DNA from: Chloroflexota bacterium
Lineage (GTDB): Bacteria > Chloroflexota > Ktedonobacteria > Ktedonobacterales > JADMIN01
Direction: 5' to 3'
Assembly: GCA_021323855.1 (NCBI GenBank)
Contig: JAJPKE010000005.1
Location: 45,935-109,934, forward strand
DNA: 64,000 nt
This document shows positions 3,144 through 63,359 of the stretch, piece after piece. Under the pieces are notes generated by a model. That model was given only the letters and a program-made list of their open reading frames with translations, did no database searches and was not told the origin of the DNA. Each line of letters begins with the position of its first letter. Positions within the stretch are counted from its first letter, which is position 1. The position numbers and the translations under genes are program-made.

Positions 3144-3665
3144 TTATAACGTCCGCTCCATTGTGAAGGTTGGAAGGCCGTTGCTATTGACGCCTCCTGC
3201 GCCCGGAACGCGCTCGAAGCCCTGCGCTTCCCAGAAGGCGGTGGCTGGCGTATTCTGCTCCAAGACGCCGATGCGCAGGCGCGTCCAGCCCAAATCCTCG
3301 CGGAAATGTTGTGCCAACCGCGCGAACGCTTCACTGCCGAGTCCTCGCCGTTGGTGCGAGCCAGCGATCATCAAGAGGCCGAGCCAGGGCAGGCCGTCGT
3401 CGGGATTCTCCGCCAGATAGTCCGCCTGACCGACCGCTTCGCCGGTCGCTTTGAGATAGATGCCCAGCATGACGCGCCCGGGCATCATCTGCGCCACCTG
3501 CCAATCGCGCTGGAGCATCGCCAGATCATAGTAGCCAGCCTCGCCCTGCGACCCCTCGCTCCAGGCGACGAACTGCGGATTGGAGAGATACACCGGCAGC
3601 AGCGCGGGCAGATCATCTGGCACGATCTCGCGGATGCGTAGCCGCTCGCTTTCCAGTTCGATCAT
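3144..3665 (-). CDS. GNAT N-acetyltransferase (RimJ/RimL-like)
   Basis: 173 aa. Acetyl-CoA motif QRRGLGSEA within a typical GNAT core. Confidence 0.8.
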   Translation of the reverse strand: MIELESERLRIREIVPDDLPALLPVYLSNPQFVAWSEGSQGEAGYYDLAMLQRDWQVAQMMPGRVMLGIYLKATGEAVGQADYLAENPDDGLPWLGLLMIAGSHQRRGLGSEAFARLAQHFREDLGWTRLRIGVLEQNTPATAFWEAQGFERVPGAGGVNSNGLPTFTMERTL

Positions 3666-3693
3666 AGAAGGACCTCAATTCAGGAAGAGCAAA

Positions 3694-4071
3694 TCATTCT
3701 TTATCACGCTTCCATTGCTCTTCGTGCAATTGGAGCAGTTTATCGAACGTATCATTGATAATGCTCCGTCTTTGGCGCTTGAAATCTGAGCGTGGCTCAA
3801 GCCTATCTATCTGCTTGTCGTACATTGCCAGATAACGGACCTTCCAGGTGGAGACACTCAGCGCCTTCGGCAATACCCCATGACAGTGAGTACAGACCAG
3901 CAACAGCAGTTCGATGCACGGCATGAGCATGCTCTCGGCGTCTTCATCAAGGCGAAAACGTTCGGTGTCTCCGAAGATTGCCTCAATGAGACCAACGTAG
4001 TGGTCTACCTGCTTATTGATAAAATCCAGCGCCGCATCGTTCTCGAAATTGCCCGATCCCCAGGTGCCCAT
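3694..4071 (-). CDS. DUF4259-like small protein
   Basis: 125 aa starting MGTWGSGNFENDAALDF, the N-terminal signature I associate with DUF4259. GC is visibly lower here. Confidence 0.55.
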   Translation of the reverse strand: MGTWGSGNFENDAALDFINKQVDHYVGLIEAIFGDTERFRLDEDAESMLMPCIELLLLVCTHCHGVLPKALSVSTWKVRYLAMYDKQIDRLEPRSDFKRQRRSIINDTFDKLLQLHEEQWKRDKE

Positions 4072-4122
4072 ACTCCCTCCGGCTCGGACTGGAATTACTG
4101 TCGGCGGCTCAAAGAAACGGTC

Positions 4123-5082
4123 TTATGGCAGGGCAGCCAGCGCTTCTCGAGCGGCGGTGATGCCTTCGTTGAAGCTGTTTGCCTCCGCAAGCACAAGCGC
4201 GCGCTGATAGTGGTCGCGCGCAACCTCTATTTCCCCTGCTTTCTGCTTTGTGGCGCCGAGTGAGAGCAACACGAAAAGCTGCGCCAGCGGAATATCCATC
4301 GTTTCTGCTAGATCGTTAGCGCGCTGAAAGTATTCTAGCGCGGCGGCATCGTTGTTCTGCGCCAGCAGCACATCACCCACCGCCAGCAGCGATAACGGCA
4401 GCAAGATGCGATAGCCCAGCTCTTCGCGCAGGGCGAGCGACCGCTGGAAGCCAGCCAGCGCCGTGCCCAGATCACCGGCCTCCTGCGCGATACCGGCCAG
4501 ATGCCGCCGCGCATACGATTCTTCCAGCTTGTGACCGTGAGCCGTCGCCGTTTCGAGCGCCGCCTCATACTGCTTGCGCGCCTCGTCCGTCTGCCCCAGC
4601 CGCTCATGAATAAGGCCGACGTGAAAGAGCGATTCCGCGATACCGTGCGTATCGTTCAGCCCTTCGCGGATGACCAGCGCACGCCGAAAGAACATCAACG
4701 CCTCGTCATAGCTGCCCTCGCCGAGATTAAGCGCGCGATTGTAGCGTATCAGCCCAGCCAGATCTGCGGCATCGGCGGAGAGCCGGGTGCTGTTCGCCAT
4801 GCCAGCCAACACTTCTGCTCGCCCTGCCGTTTCGAGCGCAAGATCATAGTCAACGTTTGCGTAGAACGTGCGATGATCGAGGATGGCGCCGAACGCAAGC
4901 GCCAGCCGTGCCCGGTCACGCACATCTACGGCGCCATCCGGCGCCTGCTCGATGAGTTCCATGCCGCCACGTAGCAGCCGTGTCGCCTCGTTTAGCTTAC
5001 CGGCGCGGTAGCAAATATCGGCAACGTCGCAAAATCCATTGACGAGCGCGCTATAACCCGCCGTCATATCTGGTTCCGGCAT
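4123..5082 (-). CDS. Tetratricopeptide (TPR) repeat protein
   Basis: Track ORF 4123..5421 overlaps the next gene, so I moved the start to ATG 5082 (AGGGGG just upstream). The product is about 320 aa of repeated A/L/Y-rich helical units, e.g. EALMFFRRALVIRE and EARKQYEAALETA. Confidence 0.7.
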   Translation of the reverse strand: MPEPDMTAGYSALVNGFCDVADICYRAGKLNEATRLLRGGMELIEQAPDGAVDVRDRARLALAFGAILDHRTFYANVDYDLALETAGRAEVLAGMANSTRLSADAADLAGLIRYNRALNLGEGSYDEALMFFRRALVIREGLNDTHGIAESLFHVGLIHERLGQTDEARKQYEAALETATAHGHKLEESYARRHLAGIAQEAGDLGTALAGFQRSLALREELGYRILLPLSLLAVGDVLLAQNNDAAALEYFQRANDLAETMDIPLAQLFVLLSLGATKQKAGEIEVARDHYQRALVLAEANSFNEGITAAREALAALP

Positions 5083-11439: not shown

Positions 11440-11658
11440 ATGGTAGATGAATTGCGTCAGGTATTCGAGCAGGCGCAACAGCGCCTTTCAGAGGAGGCTC
11501 AGCGCCACCTTGCTGCTCATATTGAGGCGTGGTTGGAAGAGCAAGAGTGGGATGCTATCGTCAATAGTCCAGAAGGTCAGGAGACGCTGGAACGGCTCGC
11601 CGCTGAAGCTCGCGCCGAAATTGCACGCGGTGATGTGGAAGAAGGTGGCTGGGAATAA
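11440..11658 (+). CDS. Putative antitoxin (helical, acidic)
   Basis: Start moved to ATG 11440 (AAGGAGG upstream). 72 aa. Its stop overlaps the toxin start (TAATG). Confidence 0.55.
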   Translation: MVDELRQVFEQAQQRLSEEAQRHLAAHIEAWLEEQEWDAIVNSPEGQETLERLAAEARAEIARGDVEEGGWE

Positions 11659-11933
11659 TGTTTCAGTCACGCCGCACCAAACGATTCAAGGCACTCTTTG
11701 ATGCGTTGCCTGAACGAGCGCAGCGTCAAGCGCGTGCGGACTACCAATTATTCAAGCTAAACCCGCGACATCCAGGTTTGCAGTTCAAGCAGATTGGCAA
11801 ACGTGATCCCTCAATCTATTCTGCCAGGGCAGGTGACCATTATCGAGCTATCGGTTTTCTGAATGGCGATACTGTTACATGGTTTTGGATAGGCACTCAC
11901 GAGGAATACAACAAGCTCTATCCTCATCTTTAA
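11658..11933 (+). CDS. ParE/RelE-superfamily type II toxin
   Basis: 91 aa. Pattern F..L....Q.......LF..NP.HPGL.FK.I......YSARAGDHYRAIGF..GDTVTWFWIGTHEEYNKL is typical of RelE/ParE-fold toxins. Confidence 0.65.
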   Translation: MFQSRRTKRFKALFDALPERAQRQARADYQLFKLNPRHPGLQFKQIGKRDPSIYSARAGDHYRAIGFLNGDTVTWFWIGTHEEYNKLYPHL

Positions 11934-34888: not shown

Positions 34889-35098
34889 AGCACGCTCTAT
34901 CGCAGCCTGGGTTTCGTCAAGAATGGGCAGGTGATCGGCGGCGAGACGGTCGCAGTCTATACCTGCCCGGTGTGAACCTGCTCACACCTGTGAATTGTTG
35001 AGTAATCAAAAGCGTTGCCCCGTAAGTGTTACCTGGTGGATGGGCGGAGAGTGATTTCCCTACCGAAATCCAGAGGACAGAAGAGGAGCAACGGGAGC

Positions 35099-36178
35099 AT
35101 GAGCATTCATCGGATGGTAGCGCGGGTCGCCGTCCTGGCGGCGCTGGTTTCCGCCTTCGCGGCGGCGCCGCTGGCGCTGGCTGCGCCGCGCGATCTGCCA
35201 CAACTGCCACACACATTGCCCAGTATCATGCCACACGACAGCAATGTCATCACGCTGAACGAAGAAAGCATTGACGGGCCCGCATTCTGGTCCATTGCCT
35301 CCGGCGAACCGGAGCCAGGGCCGAACGCGCCAATTGCTGTGTTGGCATGGACCGGCACCGACGCGGCGCACAGCCTGAACGTGATGACATCAACCGATGG
35401 CATCAACTATGGCAACAAGATCACGCTGGATGAAGAGTCGTTTACACGGCCAAGCGTTTTGCTGCTGCGACAGAACAACGCTAACATCATCGTTCTCGCC
35501 TGGACGGGCACCGACGCCAATCACTCGCTCAATGTCATGTACGATGTCTATGGCGCACAGCGTAAGATCACCATTGGCGACGACAGCAATTATGCGCCAT
35601 CGCTCGCCTTCTTCCAGGGACAGGTGTTGCTGGCGTGGACGGGCACCGACATCAATCACTCGCTCAACATCAAGCAGATGGGTTCGCAGGGCTTAACCGA
35701 CGGCGCCAAGACCATTCTGAGCCAGTATAGCAGCGATGCACAACCCTCCATCTTCACCGATATCCGCGACCATCAACTGCTGCTCACCTGGTCCTACAAC
35801 AGTTCACCAAACTGGATCAACGTCGCGTCGTCGCCAGACGGCGTAAACTTCACGGAGCCGCTGGCGGGCGGACCGCCACCGCAAACCAGCAATGCCGCTC
35901 CTGATATGATGGCGGTCAGCCAAACGATTGAAAGTATGTACCCGTATTACTGGACCTGGACGGGCACCGATCCGCTGCATTCGATAAACATTACCGCAAC
36001 CAATACGCTCAACAACTGGCCCGCGCCCATCGTTACCACCGACCAACAGGCGTTTGGTGGTCCGGTGCTGGGCTTCATCGGCCAGGAAAACGAGGTGCTA
36101 ATTGTCTGGACGGGCATTGACGCCGCGCATCACCTGAACATCATGACGCTGGATACGACGAGCCTGCCACCACTGTGA
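35099..36178 (+). CDS. Secreted repeat protein (about six blade-like repeats with LAWTGTDxxHSLNV motif); function unknown
   Basis: Start moved to ATG 35099. Signal peptide VAVLAALVSAFAAAPLALAAP. Motif copies: LAWTGTDAAHSLNV, LAWTGTDANHSLNV, LAWTGTDINHSLNI, TWTGTDPLHSINI, VWTGIDAAHHLNI. Confidence 0.6.
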   Translation: MSIHRMVARVAVLAALVSAFAAAPLALAAPRDLPQLPHTLPSIMPHDSNVITLNEESIDGPAFWSIASGEPEPGPNAPIAVLAWTGTDAAHSLNVMTSTDGINYGNKITLDEESFTRPSVLLLRQNNANIIVLAWTGTDANHSLNVMYDVYGAQRKITIGDDSNYAPSLAFFQGQVLLAWTGTDINHSLNIKQMGSQGLTDGAKTILSQYSSDAQPSIFTDIRDHQLLLTWSYNSSPNWINVASSPDGVNFTEPLAGGPPPQTSNAAPDMMAVSQTIESMYPYYWTWTGTDPLHSINITATNTLNNWPAPIVTTDQQAFGGPVLGFIGQENEVLIVWTGIDAAHHLNIMTLDTTSLPPL

Positions 36179-36272
36179 TAGCCAGGGTGCGTCTGCTATA
36201 CTGCCGGATAGAAGCTATCTCCTTCTGGCATGGCGTTATGGTTGATATTAGGTGGCGAGTGGAGGGAAAGCG

Positions 36273-37016
36273 ATGAGCGACGGCGAAAATGAGACGAGGA
36301 TGGTGGATAGCTATAACTATGCGGACTTCACCGGCGACGAGAGCCAGGGGGATTTCGCCGCGTTCATGGGCGCGCCGCACGTCGGCGAGAAGATGCCGGA
36401 CGGCACGCTGACCCGACTGGATGATGGCGCGGCGGTGGCGCTCTCCTCGCTCTGGCGCGAGCAGCACCTCATTATAGAGTTCGGCAGCTATGGTTGACCC
36501 TACTGTTCGATGGCGTGCCCATCAATGGAAGCGTTGGCGCAGGAGTATGAGCCGCGCGGCTTCGCGTCGGCGTTTATCTATGTACGCGAGGCGCACCCCG
36601 GCGAATATATGCCCTATCACGATAGCTTCGAGCGTAAACTGGCGAACGCGCGCCGCTTCCGCGACGAGCAGAGCGTGCGCCGTCCAATCCTGGTGGACAC
36701 GCTGGATGGCAAGTATCACCGCATCTTCGGCGCTCTGCCCAATATGACGCTGATTGTGCTACGCGGCGGCACGCTCGCCTATAAAGGCGCCTGGACCGAT
36801 GCGGCGGATGTGCGCGTCGCCCTTGAACAGATCGCCAACATCGCGGCGCTGCGGCGGCAAGGCGGGCGGCTTGCCCCCTTCTGGACGGAACGGCTGGCCT
36901 ATCGTGTCGTAGATCAGGCGGCGTTCAACGCGGGGCTGGAGCGCAACGGGCCAAAGGCGGTCGCCGAGTTCATGGAAATGATACGCAACGTGGGACTGGA
37001 CCGGCTGGAAGAGTAG
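36273..37016 (+). CDS. Deiodinase-like thioredoxin-fold protein with in-frame TGA (36495-36497) at the catalytic position; candidate selenoprotein
   Basis: Track ORFs 36252..36497 and 36510..37016 share one frame. ATG 36273 has GGAGGG upstream. The joined sequence reads ..LIIEFGSYG-U-PYCS...FIYVREAHP.., matching the FGSxxU/CPxF...YxxEAH deiodinase pattern. Confidence 0.6.
36503..36528 (+). other. SECIS-like hairpin 8 nt downstream of the in-frame TGA
   Basis: CUGUU(C)GAUGG-CGUGC-CCAUCAAUGG: 10 bp including 2 G-U pairs, one bulged C, and a G/U-containing loop about 20 nt after UGA. Confidence 0.4.
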
Positions 37017-37018
37017 AA

Positions 37019-37062
37019 GCCCCCACCCCCGACCCCTCCCCCGTGCGCGGGAGAGGGGGCGC
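37019..37062 (-). repeat. GC-rich hairpin repeat, family A (C-rich tail first)
   Basis: gcccccacccccgaCCCCTCCCCcgtgcgcgGGAGAGGGGgcgcag. Starts 2 nt after the TAG stop at 37014-37016. Confidence 0.8.
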
Positions 37063-37110
37063 AGACGCAAGGCAAACGGTTGTGTCGGGGGCAACAGAGT
37101 CGTCCAGCCT

Positions 37111-38229
37111 TCATTCCACTTGGATGGTTGGCCAGACACGGTGTAGCGCCACCGCGAACTGTGCGCGTTCCGGTGGCGTGCCGACCGTTACGCGGATGCA
37201 GCGGTTCAGTGGCGGCGCGCCGGGCATGCGAATGAAGACATCCTCCCCGGCCAGCGCCGCCAGCAGCGCCCGCGCCCGTTCCACGCCACCAATGTCTATG
37301 CTGACGAAGTTGGTAGCCGAGGGCAGCGCCGCCAAACCGAGTTCCTGCGCCAGCCGTTCATAGTCGCGCCGTCCCTCCGCCACCGCCGCGACCACGCTTT
37401 GCAGGTAGTCCGTATCGGCAAGCGAAGCGAGCGCGCCCGCCTGCGCCACGCGGTTGACGCCGAAGTGGAGGCGTATTTTGTCGAAGGTGCGGATGGTCTC
37501 CGCAGGCGCGATGGCGTAGCCGATGCGCAGCCCGGCCATGCCGTGCGCCTTCGAGAAGGTGCGTAGGCGAATGACACGCGGGTCTTCGGCATCTATCGCG
37601 GGAATCGCCTCAGCGGGAGCGAAATCGCTATATGCCTCATCCAGCATCAGCAGGCAGCCGGATGGTAAACTGTCGCGGAAAGCCAGCAAATCGTCTGCGG
37701 TATGCCAGGAGCCGCTGGGATTATCGGGGTTGGCGAGATAGACGATGCGTGCGCCGTGCTGATTGGCGGCATCGGCCAGCGCCTCCAGGTCGTTGCGGTC
37801 GTCCCGATAGGGAACTGTGACCAGCCTGCCGCCGTAGCCATTGACATGGAAGTTGAAGGTGGGATACGCGCCGAGCGACGTAACGGTGGTTTCGCCGCGT
37901 TCCAGAAATGTGCGCACCACCAGCCCCAGCAGATCATCTATGCCACAGCCAACGACAAGCTGCTCCATCGAGACGCCGTGATGTGCAGCCAGCGCGGCGC
38001 GTAACTCGTAGCTTTCAGGGTCGGCGTAGAGAGCGGACTGGGCGACGGCGGCGCGCATTGCCTCCTGCGCGCGTGGCGAGGGACCGAAGGCGCTCTCGTT
38101 CGCACCCAGCCGCACGGCGATGGGCCGCCCGCGCTGGCGTTCGATGGCCTCCGGTGCGACGAACGGCACCACCGCCGGCAATTCGGCTATCACGCGCGTC
38201 ACTGGTATCTGCTCTCCCCTATCGGCCAT
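37111..38229 (-). CDS. hisC: Histidinol-phosphate aminotransferase-like class-II aminotransferase
   Basis: 372 aa. RLGANESAFGPSP, YLANPDNPSG, and TFSKAHGMAGLRIGY (PLP lysine context). Not located within a his operon. Confidence 0.75.
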   Translation of the reverse strand: MADRGEQIPVTRVIAELPAVVPFVAPEAIERQRGRPIAVRLGANESAFGPSPRAQEAMRAAVAQSALYADPESYELRAALAAHHGVSMEQLVVGCGIDDLLGLVVRTFLERGETTVTSLGAYPTFNFHVNGYGGRLVTVPYRDDRNDLEALADAANQHGARIVYLANPDNPSGSWHTADDLLAFRDSLPSGCLLMLDEAYSDFAPAEAIPAIDAEDPRVIRLRTFSKAHGMAGLRIGYAIAPAETIRTFDKIRLHFGVNRVAQAGALASLADTDYLQSVVAAVAEGRRDYERLAQELGLAALPSATNFVSIDIGGVERARALLAALAGEDVFIRMPGAPPLNRCIRVTVGTPPERAQFAVALHRVWPTIQVE

Positions 38230-56105: not shown

Positions 56106-57659
56106 TCAGAACGTGAGGGTTCCAGAAGGAATAACTTTGCCAATCATGCCACCCTCCCCTCCCTCGTAATCCGTGAACCAGACATTTCCATCGCTGCCGT
56201 TTATCAGGTGGGTAGGGAGGGCACTGGATTGTAGCACGATCTGGTGGACGATTTTGCCCGATGGGGCCATCACCACAACAGTATGAGCATCTTGCTCAGC
56301 AAACCAAATGTTCTTATCCGGGCCGATAGTTATGCCTGTTAGTTTGGCGCGTGTGTCAGGAGCCTTGCGTTCTGTTATTGTTCCTGTTGGCGTCACTTCG
56401 CCAACAAGGCCAGTCTGCTCCGTAAACCAAGCATTGCCGTGAGCATCAACGGCGATGTCGGTCGGATTGGCATTTGCTGTAGGAATGGAAAACTCCTGAA
56501 GTTTCCCTGCGGGAGTTATTTCGCCGATCTGATTCGCCCCGCTTTCCACAAACCATATCGTCCCGTCCACCGTGGCCGTAATCCTTGTTGGTTCAGACTG
56601 GGGTGTGGTAATCGGTAGCACCGAGTAGTCAACTTTGGTTCCTACGCCGTAAGGCGCTGCTCCTTCTGGTTGAAATACGAAGATAGCGTTCGCCTTCTTC
56701 AAAGTAACCCAATACTTTCCATGACTGCTGACAATACCGTAGGGCTGAGCATCAGCGACCGGGATAGAGAATGTATTTGAATAGCTCTGGCTTTGAGCAT
56801 CAAAATATGCGATGGCATTTATGCCTGGCTCTGTCACCCAGAGTGTCTGGTTATCGGGTCCCAGAAGGAGCTCTGTGGGCTCTGTGTTTGGGCGATTGTT
56901 GGTATATTCCGTGATGACTGGACCTTGCTGGCTGCAACAGGATCCAATTCTGTTGTCCTGATCTTCGGTAAACCAGATGGTCCCGTTGGGGCCAGAGGTA
57001 AGATCATAAGGTCTGCCTCCTCCTCCAATGCCGTAGATTGCAGTTGTATAAGATATGGTCAGAGGTCCAGGATTGAAATGCTGAACAAGGTTAACGATCC
57101 CAACGGAGAGAATGACGCAAATAACGATTGCGGCAATGACGGCAAGCGCAACAGGTAGTGAAAAGATCGCAGTCAGGCGAGCGAACAAGTTTTTACGATT
57201 CACCTCGAAGATGGTGTCTTTGCGGGTTGGTCTGGAAACGGCAATCCCTATCGCTTGTGAAAGGAGAGCGATTTGTTTTTGGTATTTCTCTGGAGATAGG
57301 GCAGGCGTGGGGATATCTCGAAAGTCCAGGAGCTGGAACCGACTAATATTCTTTGGCACTGCGGGACAAGATAAACAATAGATGGGAATGATCGGTTTCT
57401 TTTGGCTCTGCGCATAGCGAATCTCTTGTTGGACCCAGGGTGAGGCAAGCGCCGTCGGAGAGAGAATGAGCAAAGTCACCTGGCAACGGTCAATCGCTTC
57501 TCGGATTTCTGCGTTCCAAATCTGACCAGCCTCAATCTTGCGACGATCAACCCAGGTTTGATATCCACCATAGCGCAGATGGGCTTCGAGCGTGTCCACA
57601 AAAGCGCTATCACTGCGCGAATACGAAATGAAAAGTCGAATTGGCTGGCTGACTGCCAT
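56106..57659 (-). CDS. TIR domain - TM helix - seven-bladed Vgb-like (virginiamycin B lyase-type) beta-propeller protein
   Basis: 517 aa. TIR: RLFISYSRSDSAFV...LLILSPTALASPWVQQEIRYA. TM: LPVALAVIAAIVICVILSVGIV. Seven G(P)(D/N)G.(I/L)WF(T/V)E-type repeats. Visibly lower GC. Confidence 0.8.
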   Translation of the reverse strand: MAVSQPIRLFISYSRSDSAFVDTLEAHLRYGGYQTWVDRRKIEAGQIWNAEIREAIDRCQVTLLILSPTALASPWVQQEIRYAQSQKKPIIPIYCLSCPAVPKNISRFQLLDFRDIPTPALSPEKYQKQIALLSQAIGIAVSRPTRKDTIFEVNRKNLFARLTAIFSLPVALAVIAAIVICVILSVGIVNLVQHFNPGPLTISYTTAIYGIGGGGRPYDLTSGPNGTIWFTEDQDNRIGSCCSQQGPVITEYTNNRPNTEPTELLLGPDNQTLWVTEPGINAIAYFDAQSQSYSNTFSIPVADAQPYGIVSSHGKYWVTLKKANAIFVFQPEGAAPYGVGTKVDYSVLPITTPQSEPTRITATVDGTIWFVESGANQIGEITPAGKLQEFSIPTANANPTDIAVDAHGNAWFTEQTGLVGEVTPTGTITERKAPDTRAKLTGITIGPDKNIWFAEQDAHTVVVMAPSGKIVHQIVLQSSALPTHLINGSDGNVWFTDYEGGEGGMIGKVIPSGTLTF

Positions 57660-60576: not shown

Positions 60577-63129
60577 CTAGGTAGGGTGCAGGAGTTGCGC
60601 GCAAATTATTTCTGGTTGGTCAGCATAGGTCTCGCCGCGCCCCCAGGCGGCAGCGAATGTCTCATTATCCATCTGCTGTCTGATATGTTCGCGGACGGCT
60701 GTGAAGTCGGCTTCCTCAGATGGCGGCAAAGGCGCGTCAATCAATGTGCGCAATCCGGTAACGGCTCCGCCAATCAGTGCTGCTTGCTCCATAGCGCCTT
60801 CTCTCGCCAATAGCTCCATCCAGCCTTGCAGCGTCACGGCAATACCTACCTTCTCGCCCAGGGCAAGGCGAAGCTCCAATGCCTCGGTCATCGCGCTGCG
60901 AGCCGCTGCAAGATTTCCCAGGTGAATCGCCACGCCGCCCAGATTCGTCAGCACGAGCGCAATGCGCTGCTTATCTCCGAGGCTGCGGAAGAGAGTGAGT
61001 GACTCCTCAAAATAGGACCGGGCGCGCGCATAGTCTTTCAGTGCAAGGGCAGCGCATCCCAGGTTGGTCAGCGACGAAGCAGTGCCAAATGTATCGCGCA
61101 GTTCGCGGCGGATGCTCAGGCTTTCCTCATGATGCTGGATGGCGCCTGCGTAGTCTCCCTGGATGTGCAGTACCTCGCCCAGATTGTTGAGCGAGATGCC
61201 CATGCCCCAGCGATCCCCAATCGCTCGCCGCAGTTCCAACCCCTGCCGGTAGCGTTCAGCCGCCTGGGTATAATCACCATGATAGAGCGCGATCACCCCA
61301 AGATTGCTGAGCGCCGCCGCGATCCCTGTGCGGTCCTCATTGGCGCGAAAAATATCCAGGCTTCGTGTAAAGGCGGCTTCCGCAACGTCGTAATCTCCCT
61401 GCACCCACGCCAGTGACCCCGCGCCCTGATACAGCTTGCCCAGAGACGCAGGCGGCACCTGCTGCTCGCTCGCCAGCGTCTCCGCGATCCATTGACGGCC
61501 CTCGCTGACATAGCCGTGAAGCCACCAGAAGCGCCACAACGCGGCGCCGATACGACCAAGCACGTCAAAACGCTCCTGGCTTGTGGCCCATTGTAGTGTG
61601 GCGCGGATGTTAGGATAGTCGCTTTCGAGCAGATCTAGCCAGTGCTGCTGCTCCGCGCCGACCAATTCTGGCTCTGCGCGTTCGACCAATTCCAGAAAGT
61701 AGCCAGCATGACGCTCGCGAGCCGTTTCATCGGCGTCAGTTTCAGAGAGTTGCAGTAGCGCAAATTCGCGGATTGTCTCAAGCATCTGGAAGCGCGGCTC
61801 GCCGTCGCCAGCATTGCCGCTCAGCACAATGAGGCTCTTATCGGCAAGCCGGTCGAGGAGATCAGTGGTATCTTGGTCCATCCGGCAGACCGCCGTGGCC
61901 GCCTCAATGGTCCAGCCGCCGACGAACACGCCAAGCATATGGAATGCTCTCCGGTCGTCTCCCTTCAGCAGCCCCTCGCTCCATGCCAGCGCATTCCGCA
62001 AGGTTTGATGGCGCTCTGGCATATTCTCCGGGCCGCCGACGAGCAATCCCAGGCGATTATCCATATGCGACAGCACCGCGTCGAGCGAGAGACGGCGCAT
62101 GCGAGCCGCCGCTAGCTCCAGCGCCAGCGGCAAACCGTCGAGATGCGCGCAAATCCTGGCGACCTGCGGGGCGTTGCCAGCGGAGAGCGCGAACGCGGGC
62201 TGCACGGCGCGCACTCGTGCCACAAAGAGGCGAATCGCTGAACTCGTCTGGAATGCGCTCAAGAGAGGCGCTGCGGCAAGATCAGGCACGTCGAGTGGCG
62301 GAACAGCAAATTCATATTCGCCGTAAAGCTGCAAAGGTGTCCGGCTGGTGACCAGCACCGTCAGGTCCGGCGCTTCTGTAAGCAGTTCAGCGATTACACC
62401 GGCGGCTTTGAGAACATGCTCGAAATTGTCGAGGACAAGTAGCGCACGGCCCTGCCGTAATGTCGCCACGATCTGCTCACGCAACGTATCAGGCGTATCG
62501 CTCGCGATCTTGAGCGCGCGTCCAATAGCAGGAAGCACATAGCCTGGCGCGGTGATGGCGGCAAGGCTGATGAAATAGATGCCGCCTGCATAGCCTTCTT
62601 GCAGATCTATCGCCAGTTGCACCGCCAGCCGCGTCTTGCCGACGCCACCTGTGCCGGTGAGCGTCATCAGGCGCGCACCGGCAGCGAGTAGTTCTTTGAT
62701 CTGTTGCAATTCCGTTTCGCGTCCGATGAGCGGCGTCAGAGGCGCAGGAATGCCCAGAAGAGTTGCGGACGGTCGAGAACTGGCAGTTTGGGGAGAAGAC
62801 GTTGGCGATGAGGACGGCAATGGCGCCATTGGCGACAACAAACTGAGCGGTGGTTGTTGCCATTCGGCTTCGCTGAAGTGCTGCCTGCCCATATCCATAT
62901 AGGAGAGCATCTCTACCACTTCAGCCTGGGAGGTAAAGGCCAGCCAGCGGGCGAGGATCACCACGATCTGTTTGATCTCAGTGTGCGTCAGTTGCGAGTT
63001 GCTAATGCCGTTGAGCTTATGGCTGAGAACATCAGGATTCAGGCCGAGCGCAGCGGCCAGCGCTTTCTGCGATTGCCCTATCAGGCGAAGATACGATTTC
63101 AGTTTGGCGCGAAAAGCCTCTAGTTGCAT
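60577..63129 (-). CDS. STAND-class NTPase regulator: XRE-type HTH - NB-ARC/AAA - TPR array
   Basis: About 850 aa. ATG 63129 has GAGGGG upstream (the track start is 63150). HTH GQSQKALAAALGLNPDVLSHKLNG. Walker A GTGGVGKTRLA, Walker B LLVLDNFEHV. C-terminal TPRs repeat the (A/S)L.NLG pattern. Confidence 0.8.
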   Translation of the reverse strand: MQLEAFRAKLKSYLRLIGQSQKALAAALGLNPDVLSHKLNGISNSQLTHTEIKQIVVILARWLAFTSQAEVVEMLSYMDMGRQHFSEAEWQQPPLSLLSPMAPLPSSSPTSSPQTASSRPSATLLGIPAPLTPLIGRETELQQIKELLAAGARLMTLTGTGGVGKTRLAVQLAIDLQEGYAGGIYFISLAAITAPGYVLPAIGRALKIASDTPDTLREQIVATLRQGRALLVLDNFEHVLKAAGVIAELLTEAPDLTVLVTSRTPLQLYGEYEFAVPPLDVPDLAAAPLLSAFQTSSAIRLFVARVRAVQPAFALSAGNAPQVARICAHLDGLPLALELAAARMRRLSLDAVLSHMDNRLGLLVGGPENMPERHQTLRNALAWSEGLLKGDDRRAFHMLGVFVGGWTIEAATAVCRMDQDTTDLLDRLADKSLIVLSGNAGDGEPRFQMLETIREFALLQLSETDADETARERHAGYFLELVERAEPELVGAEQQHWLDLLESDYPNIRATLQWATSQERFDVLGRIGAALWRFWWLHGYVSEGRQWIAETLASEQQVPPASLGKLYQGAGSLAWVQGDYDVAEAAFTRSLDIFRANEDRTGIAAALSNLGVIALYHGDYTQAAERYRQGLELRRAIGDRWGMGISLNNLGEVLHIQGDYAGAIQHHEESLSIRRELRDTFGTASSLTNLGCAALALKDYARARSYFEESLTLFRSLGDKQRIALVLTNLGGVAIHLGNLAAARSAMTEALELRLALGEKVGIAVTLQGWMELLAREGAMEQAALIGGAVTGLRTLIDAPLPPSEEADFTAVREHIRQQMDNETFAAAWGRGETYADQPEIICAQLLHPT

Positions 63130-63359
63130 CGGCGGCCCCTCATTGTTCATTGTTCATTTTTATACAGAGGCTTACCTGAAGTTCTGCCCATTATACACGT
63201 ATACACGTCGAAGCTCGTTATCGTATTGTTGCCGGTTGTTGACTGATAATAGGGGAAACGGGCGATTAGGCGATGCGAGCAGCACGTCACCCATCCTCTC
63301 ATGCCATACAGATAGAGAGAAGATGAGTGACAAAGACGGAGTGTTGATTGTTTAGGGTA

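Follow-up and report, generated by a model that had tools for sequence, protein, structure and literature searches.

Is the in-frame TGA that divides a deiodinase-like gene in a soil Ktedonobacterales-type genome a stop codon, or does it specify selenocysteine (Sec)? The gene lies in a 64,000-nt stretch of DNA, the window, to which all coordinates refer unless a related locus (designated by an L-number) is named. The window corresponds to positions 45,935-109,934, forward strand, of contig JAJPKE010000005.1 from the Chloroflexota bacterium assembly GCA_021323855.1 (Ktedonobacteria; Ktedonobacterales; JADMIN01). An earlier note on this DNA had described 36273-37016 as a candidate bacterial selenoprotein gene with a hairpin resembling a selenocysteine insertion sequence (SECIS) just past the TGA. 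Our comparative analysis supports that description, as all the checks at sequence level that the note had suggested proved favorable, and we consider it highly probable that the TGA at 36495-36497 encodes Sec in a functional deiodinase-like selenoprotein gene, a member of a family that had already been predicted in the literature (PMC1088965, PMC13188914).

Translation of 36150-37016 confirmed that the open reading frames (ORFs) 36252..36497 and 36510..37016 share one frame, and that they are separated only by the TGA and the four sense codons CCC TAC TGT TCG. The joined peptide reads HLIIEFGSYG-TGA-PYCSMACPSMEALAQEYEPRGFASAFIYVREAHPGEY, which places the motif FGSYG-U-PYC at the TGA. The complete coding sequence (36273..37016, + strand) runs from the ATG at 36273 to the TAG at 37014-37016 and comprises 247 codons, with the TGA at codon 75 (36495..36497, +) as the sole internal stop. 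The likely start codon, ATG 36273, is also the one chosen by gene callers for a 74-amino acid (aa) product, and a Shine-Dalgarno-like GGAGGG (36261..36266, +), read from the sequence, lies 6 nt upstream of it. Two further elements are recognizable in the joined frame: the TGT codon of Cys78 (36504..36506, +), the +3 partner in U-P-Y-C, and the codons for Y103-V-R-E106-A-H108 (36579..36596, +), a deiodinase-type (Y)xxEAH(P) motif in which Y, E, A, H and P are invariant in the family alignments. Public gene calls present the same DNA as two hypothetical proteins of 74 aa and 163 aa.

The evidence that carries the Sec assignment is comparative. Hundreds of relatives emerged from a search of 5.8 billion proteins, and almost all of these are C-terminal fragments of ~163-167 aa that begin just past the TGA position. 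When genomes were searched instead, with one genome per species, at least 593 relatives were returned. The best 80 were fetched for comparison, and all 80 have TGA at the Sec codon. The joined protein matches these 80 genomes by tblastn over residues ~10-247, in one frame straight through the TGA, and the relatives are free of other disruptions, a point on which the earlier note had made its reading depend. TGA was likewise present in 87 of the 87 fetched loci as well as in L079. Every fetched locus has Cys at +3 of U, within P[YF]C in the 87 and within AYC in L079, in agreement with the U-x-x-C pair (UPYC) that had been proposed for the window gene. The consensus motif among the loci is FGSx(T/S)-U-(P/A)(Y/F)C, 29 or 31 residues ahead of EAHP.

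Among the 80 best loci, TGA carriers span at least 8 phylum-level groups. The Chloroflexota carriers include Ktedonobacterales (the closest of the 80, with 66-69% identity), Thermomicrobiales, Dehalococcoidia and Anaerolineae, and the Actinomycetota carriers include Nitriliruptorales and Pseudonocardia, among them the isolate P. nigra DSM 104088. The remainder are found in Alpha-, Gamma- and Deltaproteobacteria, Armatimonadota, Bacillota, Deinococcus and Acidobacteriota. The closest Ktedonobacterales relatives (L008-L013) keep the TGA and an identical GAUGG-CGUGC-CCAUC hairpin, their frame is intact to either side of the TGA, and one Ktedonobacterales metagenome-assembled genome (MAG) has two TGA-containing copies (L009 and L012). 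Cys forms are rare: a genuine TGC was seen at the Sec codon, at the DNA level, in L090, L091 and L092, and among the few full-length protein entries P0073, P0077 and P0122 have Cys. The ratio of nonsynonymous to synonymous substitution rates (dN/dS) against relatives is 0.27-0.5 over the 60 codons upstream of the TGA, where it was calculated from a codon alignment, and 0.16-0.37 over the 100 codons downstream. Purifying selection acts on both sides of the TGA.

The protein sequence points to the same position. With U written as C, the joined product passed the Pfam gathering thresholds for Redoxin (35.2 bits), T4_deiodinase (PF00837; 32.8 bits with a cutoff of 27, residues 35-173) and AhpC-TSA (32 bits). 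It scored 55.3 bits against the cutoff of 250 for NCBIfam NF038285, deiodinase_rel (residues 28-172, E = 7e-15); only the C-terminal half of this 347-position model is matched, and the window protein falls below the cutoff and is not a member. When a profile of the family was compared with all PDB sequences, mouse Dio3 (4tr3, 6.9e-13) was the top match, followed by Dio2 (9h48, 8.6e-9), with TlpA/ResA-type thioredoxins far behind at 1.7e-5 or worse. The TGA column aligns with the Cys that replaces Sec in the crystallized 4tr3 and 9h48 mutants (SeCys->Cys in the entry titles), and it is the column in which the Cys forms carry TGC. Thus, the TGA does fall, as first proposed, on the catalytic Sec/Cys column, the Sec position of deiodinases and the peroxidatic-Cys position of peroxiredoxins. 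The family motif FvYtrEAHP aligns with IYIEEAHP of Dio3, and a lone one-residue gap lies between Sec and the motif; the distance from U to the E of EAH is 31 residues in the window protein and one residue shorter in mouse Dio3 in the profile alignment, just the one-residue difference that had been noted. A proton relay of Ser, Thr, Tyr, Glu, His and a second His has been proposed for deiodinases (PMC11592359). Five of these six residues are kept in the window protein (Ser72, Tyr103, Glu106, His108 and His116), and most relatives have all six together with Sec.

The structure was modelled by AlphaFold for the Cys homolog P0073, with a predicted local distance difference test (pLDDT) score of 82 and a predicted template modelling (pTM) score of 0.82. 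Foldseek placed this model with thioredoxin folds of the TlpA/Prx/Dio-like type, with 3u5r, 3gl3, 2ywi, 4nmu, ResA and Bcp as top matches. A helical C-terminal region of ~70 residues is extra and lies outside the structural matches (TMq ~0.5); in the P0073 model its helices span 178-196, 216-226 and 228-244. The N-terminus of the window protein, MSDGENETRMVDSYNYADFTGDESQGDF, is acidic and polar, without a hydrophobic stretch.

The hairpin as first drawn (36503..36528, +), with a lower stem 36503-36507/36524-36528, a bulged C at 36508, an upper stem and a loop, is the minimum free energy structure of 36495-36560, with 5 bp, the bulge, another 5 bp and a CGUGC loop. Only its upper 5 bp and loop coincide with the helix found across the family; the lower stem is specific to this sequence and lies outside the consensus, which qualifies the original drawing. 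The conserved SECIS core (36509..36523, +), as defined by the family alignment and covariation, consists of the stem GAUGG (36509-36513) and CCAUC (36519-36523) around the apical loop CGUGC (36514-36518). It begins 11 nt past the UGA, the same spacing as that between UGA and hairpin in the minimal SECIS of Escherichia coli fdhF.

The 48 nt from the TGA onward could be aligned without gaps in 81 distinct sequences. In this alignment the family helix occupies columns 13-20/24-31, with a loop of 3-5 nt, and is paired in 81% of cells compared with 68% in column shuffles. Its covariation is 0.343 versus 0.149 in shuffles, none of 500 of which reach the observed value, and 0.03-0.10 in slid controls. 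RNAalifold recovered the same helix core. Pair 14-30 is GC in 40 and CG in 28 of the 81 sequences, and pair 16-28 is AU in 42, CG in 28 and GC in 7. Given that these compensatory changes alter the protein (ATG..TCC versus CTG..GCG, or Met..Ser versus Leu..Ala), and that an actinobacterial subfamily with the peptide AEGPLL has a different hairpin, GCAGAG-GGUC-CUCUGC, in the same place, RNA structure constrains the sequence beyond coding needs. The significance of the window hairpin comes from this comparison across the family and not from the single sequence. At alignment column 21, in the loop, a G is almost always present, which fits the small apical loop with a guanosine published for bacterial SECIS elements (PMC1088965). 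Of the Cys forms, one keeps the hairpin (-13.5 kcal/mol) and two have weakened versions (-4.6 and -7.2 kcal/mol); with n = 3, it is only suggestive that the hairpin weakens once Cys has replaced Sec and that the remaining strong one is a fossil.

The alternative that survives best is that this is indeed a selenoprotein family but that Sec decoding has been lost in this genome, so that the gene is a silent relic yielding only a 74-residue fragment. Several points weigh against our assignment, and the first three speak for such a relic. Neither a tRNA-Sec nor any other Rfam family was found in the 64-kb window, which also yielded no selA, selB or selD, and a further ~14 kb of annotated flanking sequence showed neither sel genes nor a tRNA-Sec. 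The window hairpin, at -7.4 kcal/mol alone compared with a median of -11.6 for the Sec forms, is among the weaker in the family. In the window protein, Gly74 takes the place of the relay Thr that stands just before Sec in deiodinases and almost all relatives. In a single-sequence test the hairpin is unexceptional (z = +0.61, with 143 of 200 shuffles folding as well or better). Finally, reviews from 2022 and 2026 that list a "Deiodinase-like protein, PF00837, UxxC, one Sec" (PMC9312934; PMC13188914 Table 1) class the family as predicted, not verified. However, loss of Sec decoding should bring conversion of TGA to TGC or decay, whereas the L008-L013 relatives, at 66-69% identity, keep TGA, hairpin and an intact frame with dN/dS of 0.16-0.5, a relative's MAG maintains two TGA copies, and the sequence of the gene is identical in six assemblies. 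We therefore regard a silent relic as quite improbable and favor a gene in which the UGA is still decoded as Sec.

The Sec machinery was also sought near the related genes. A search for SelD and SelA motifs, together with tblastn of E. coli SelA, SelB and SelD probes against 1.3 Mb of sequence, uncovered only one selD, in L022, and a scan of the tRNAs in 60 related loci gave no tRNA-Sec. The selD of L022, a Bacillota MAG, is at 3334-4356 (+), encodes AIRS and AIRS_C domains, and its product is 39% identical to the E. coli SelD probe. It has an in-frame TGA of its own, in SG-U-ACK, and lies 6 kb upstream of the deiodinase-like gene of the same genome. Near it is an ORF of the DsrE family (L022:1860-2420, -); DsrE-like proteins are a known selenoprotein family. 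A scan of the window for further ORF-TGA-ORF arrangements gave no other case with a redox-type motif. Some Chloroflexota have very large selenoproteomes (PMC13326102), and a literature search on Sec use in Ktedonobacter or Ktedonobacterales returned nothing usable.

Another possibility is that the UGA is read as Trp or Cys, through near-cognate suppression or an alternative code, as might be thought from database entries that show Trp at this residue (P0074, P0076, P0121 and P0124). We checked the DNA for P0074 and rejected it as a Trp variant: the codon (locus L007:485-487) is TGA, translated under table 4 on a short contig, and the terminal TGA was also read as Trp. The Trp in P0076, P0121 and P0124 looks like the same code-4 artefact, and true sense-codon homologs carry Cys, not Trp. 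In addition, TGA terminates 11 of the 36 Pfam-supported genes in the window, and therefore there is no general reading of UGA as sense in this organism, while simple read-through would have no use for a conserved, covarying hairpin placed at SECIS distance. We judge decoding as Trp or Cys to be very improbable.

We give a negligible chance to a nonsense-mutation pseudogene, to an error in sequencing or assembly, and to a pair of independent small genes (74 and 163 residues) such as the split public calls suggest. All 80 genomes have the TGA, as do six independent assemblies of the gene, which agree in the exact sequence, TGA included (a JGI metagenome, three MAGs from NCBI and two Logan assemblies; GCA_037025385.1, GCA_037025005.1 and GCA_037024435.1 are MAGs with this exact gene). 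A single thioredoxin-fold domain spans the TGA, and full-length Cys forms exist. Together, the TGA in relatives, the dN/dS values, the six assemblies and the ordinary TGA stops lead us to exclude that the gene is a pseudogene, was misassembled, is really two genes or belongs to a genome with a reassigned code, leaving UGA-directed insertion of Sec as the preferred reading.

Three side observations concern how such genes appear in databases and genomes. In general, gene calls made under code 4 give rise to spurious sense-codon "homologs" of selenoproteins. In P0123 (NCBI HYV04_08280, 239 aa, from a Deltaproteobacteria MAG), unrelated residues (KKEVVKFLVEIFLSDLEP) replace FGSxTUPYC...MAxPS, perhaps as an artefact of annotation or of a frameshift around the TGA. 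In two Deltaproteobacteria MAGs, a second deiodinase-like paralog lies ~1 kb from the UPYC-type gene (L066:8811-9515, +, and L021:3861-4565, +). This paralog has the motif FGSIT-U-PPF, which resembles that of animals and has no Cys at +3. The codon at U is TGA in L066 and a genuine TGG (Trp) in L021, where Trp has replaced Sec, which would be unusual, or the sequence is in error.

Bacterial deiodinase-like proteins were first reported in the 2005 Sargasso Sea study of Zhang, Fomenko and Gladyshev, with Sec and Cys forms, a bacterial SECIS and a suggested redox function (PMC1088965). What we found agrees with that family in the T4_deiodinase match, the single Sec in UxxC, the SECIS hairpin whose small apical loop contains G, the rare Cys homologs, the presence in marine Dehalococcoidia, including Tara contigs, and the presumed redox role. 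The window member differs in coming from a soil Ktedonobacterales-type genome, in being unannotated, and in having Gly for Thr before Sec. We assign the gene as a new member of the family predicted in 2005 by its stated features, each of which the gene has; AACY01143874, MBO99264.1 and MFL2763324.1 are published representatives of that family. For the deiodinase-like proteins in the Global Ocean Sampling paper no redox motif is given (PMC2398784), and they may be equivalent to the UPPF-type paralog of L066.

The animal deiodinases Dio1-3 are the closest solved structures by profile. They share with the bacterial family Sec at the same column in FGSxxUP and a thioredoxin fold with peroxiredoxin-like features, and they share the Ser, Tyr, Glu, His and second His of the relay with the window protein and the relay Thr with the family consensus. 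The differences are substantial. A 9-residue gap in the bacterial family lies opposite GWVTTDSPY of Dio3, the centre of loop D, which contributes to thyronine binding. The N-terminal membrane anchor of the Dios (PMC9141512, PMC11592359) has no counterpart in the window protein, which has Cys at +3 (UPYC) where Dio has Phe, as well as the ~70-residue helical C-terminal extra. The SECIS lies in the coding sequence here and in the 3´ untranslated region in the Dios. With neither the loop-D centre nor the membrane anchor, the window protein is outside the animal deiodinases proper, and thyroid hormones are not anticipated as its substrates. The TlpA/ResA oxidoreductases and peroxiredoxins are similar at the level of the fold, in the Redoxin and AhpC-TSA matches above threshold and in an xxC dithiol-type motif. 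Unlike the window protein, they are not characterized by an EAHPGE motif or by the relay residues of deiodinases.

What might the protein do? In the model we favor, 36273-37016 would be translated into one cytoplasmic 247-residue thioredoxin-fold protein. The UGA at 36495-36497 would not be read as a stop, as the hairpin core at 36509-36523 would act as a bacterial SECIS and recruit SelB-GTP-Sec-tRNA(Sec), with Sec entering at residue 75. Sec75, at the N-terminus of the fold's first helix, could then be the nucleophile that attacks an oxidized or halogenated substrate. By analogy with UxxC/CxxC chemistry, Cys78 is the putative resolving cysteine, and would form a selenenylsulfide with Sec75 that a thioredoxin-type reductant could reduce. 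Both this catalytic cycle and the class of substrate are what we infer for the window protein. Because the family nearly always uses Sec and keeps the whole deiodinase proton relay, it is tempting to suggest that this would be a bacterial branch of the deiodinase lineage that serves aerobic soil and marine Chloroflexota and Actinomycetota as a true Se-dependent enzyme for the reductive dehalogenation of small halogenated aromatics, or else as a Sec-peroxidase, although we see this proposal as speculative and rather unlikely.

These results have several implications. The gene and hundreds of its relatives are stored in databases as split hypothetical proteins of 74 aa and ~163 aa, some with a false Trp, and a model combining the protein profile, the UGA and the hairpin would repair the split annotations. 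The family is widespread (at least 593 matches in species-representative genomes), depends on Sec in the overwhelming majority of its members, and retains the catalytic relay known from animal deiodinases. The gene implies Sec use in soil Ktedonobacterales. Pseudonocardia nigra DSM 104088, a cultured carrier, makes 75Se labelling and enzymology feasible. If the dehalogenase proposal were true, the family would provide a functional bacterial ancestor for the thyroid-hormone deiodinases of animals.

The genomic setting is not conserved. Clustering of the flanking ORFs of the 80 loci gave no consistent neighbor, the commonest families being ABC ATPase (16), DUF3179 (13), Redoxin (11), Crp (11) and pyridine-nucleotide disulfide oxidoreductase (8), and the context therefore gives no functional clue. 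In the window, the upstream neighbors are a repeat protein and a gamma-glutamyltranspeptidase, and downstream are a convergent aminotransferase and then a phosphotransferase. A promoter-like site, GTGATA-16-TATACT with TG before the -10 (36175..36202, +), lies within the 94-nt gap behind the upstream gene; a consensus scan gave 2 sites in the region compared with 0.4 expected, which is weak evidence. The gene directly upstream (35015-36178, +) encodes 387 residues (359 as called), with a hydrophobic N-terminal segment, no Pfam match and five repeats of (L/I)(A/V)WTG(T/I)DxxHxLN(I/V). The product looks like a secreted repeat protein and is possibly propeller-like.

In an NCBI MAG contig (L002) that contains the identical gene, what might have been a tandem second copy was rejected, as the first 163-aa product on this contig proved to be the upstream repeat protein in truncated form. 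Comparison of L002:1332-1431 with window 37017-37116 revealed that the two diverge right past the stop codon, where L002 enters a long poly-C run and has other downstream genes, the result of either a rearranged strain or a chimeric assembly. Elsewhere in the window, 56106-57659 (-) encodes a 517-residue protein with a TIR/ThsB_TIR domain and Vgb_lyase/SGL beta-propeller repeats, and 60577-63150 (-) encodes an 850-residue NB-ARC/NACHT-like ATPase with TPR repeats, architectures that are typical of anti-phage defence or signalling proteins. Lastly, a gene pair at 11440-11933 (+), encoding 72 aa and 91 aa, the second with a weak ParE_like match, may be a toxin-antitoxin system.

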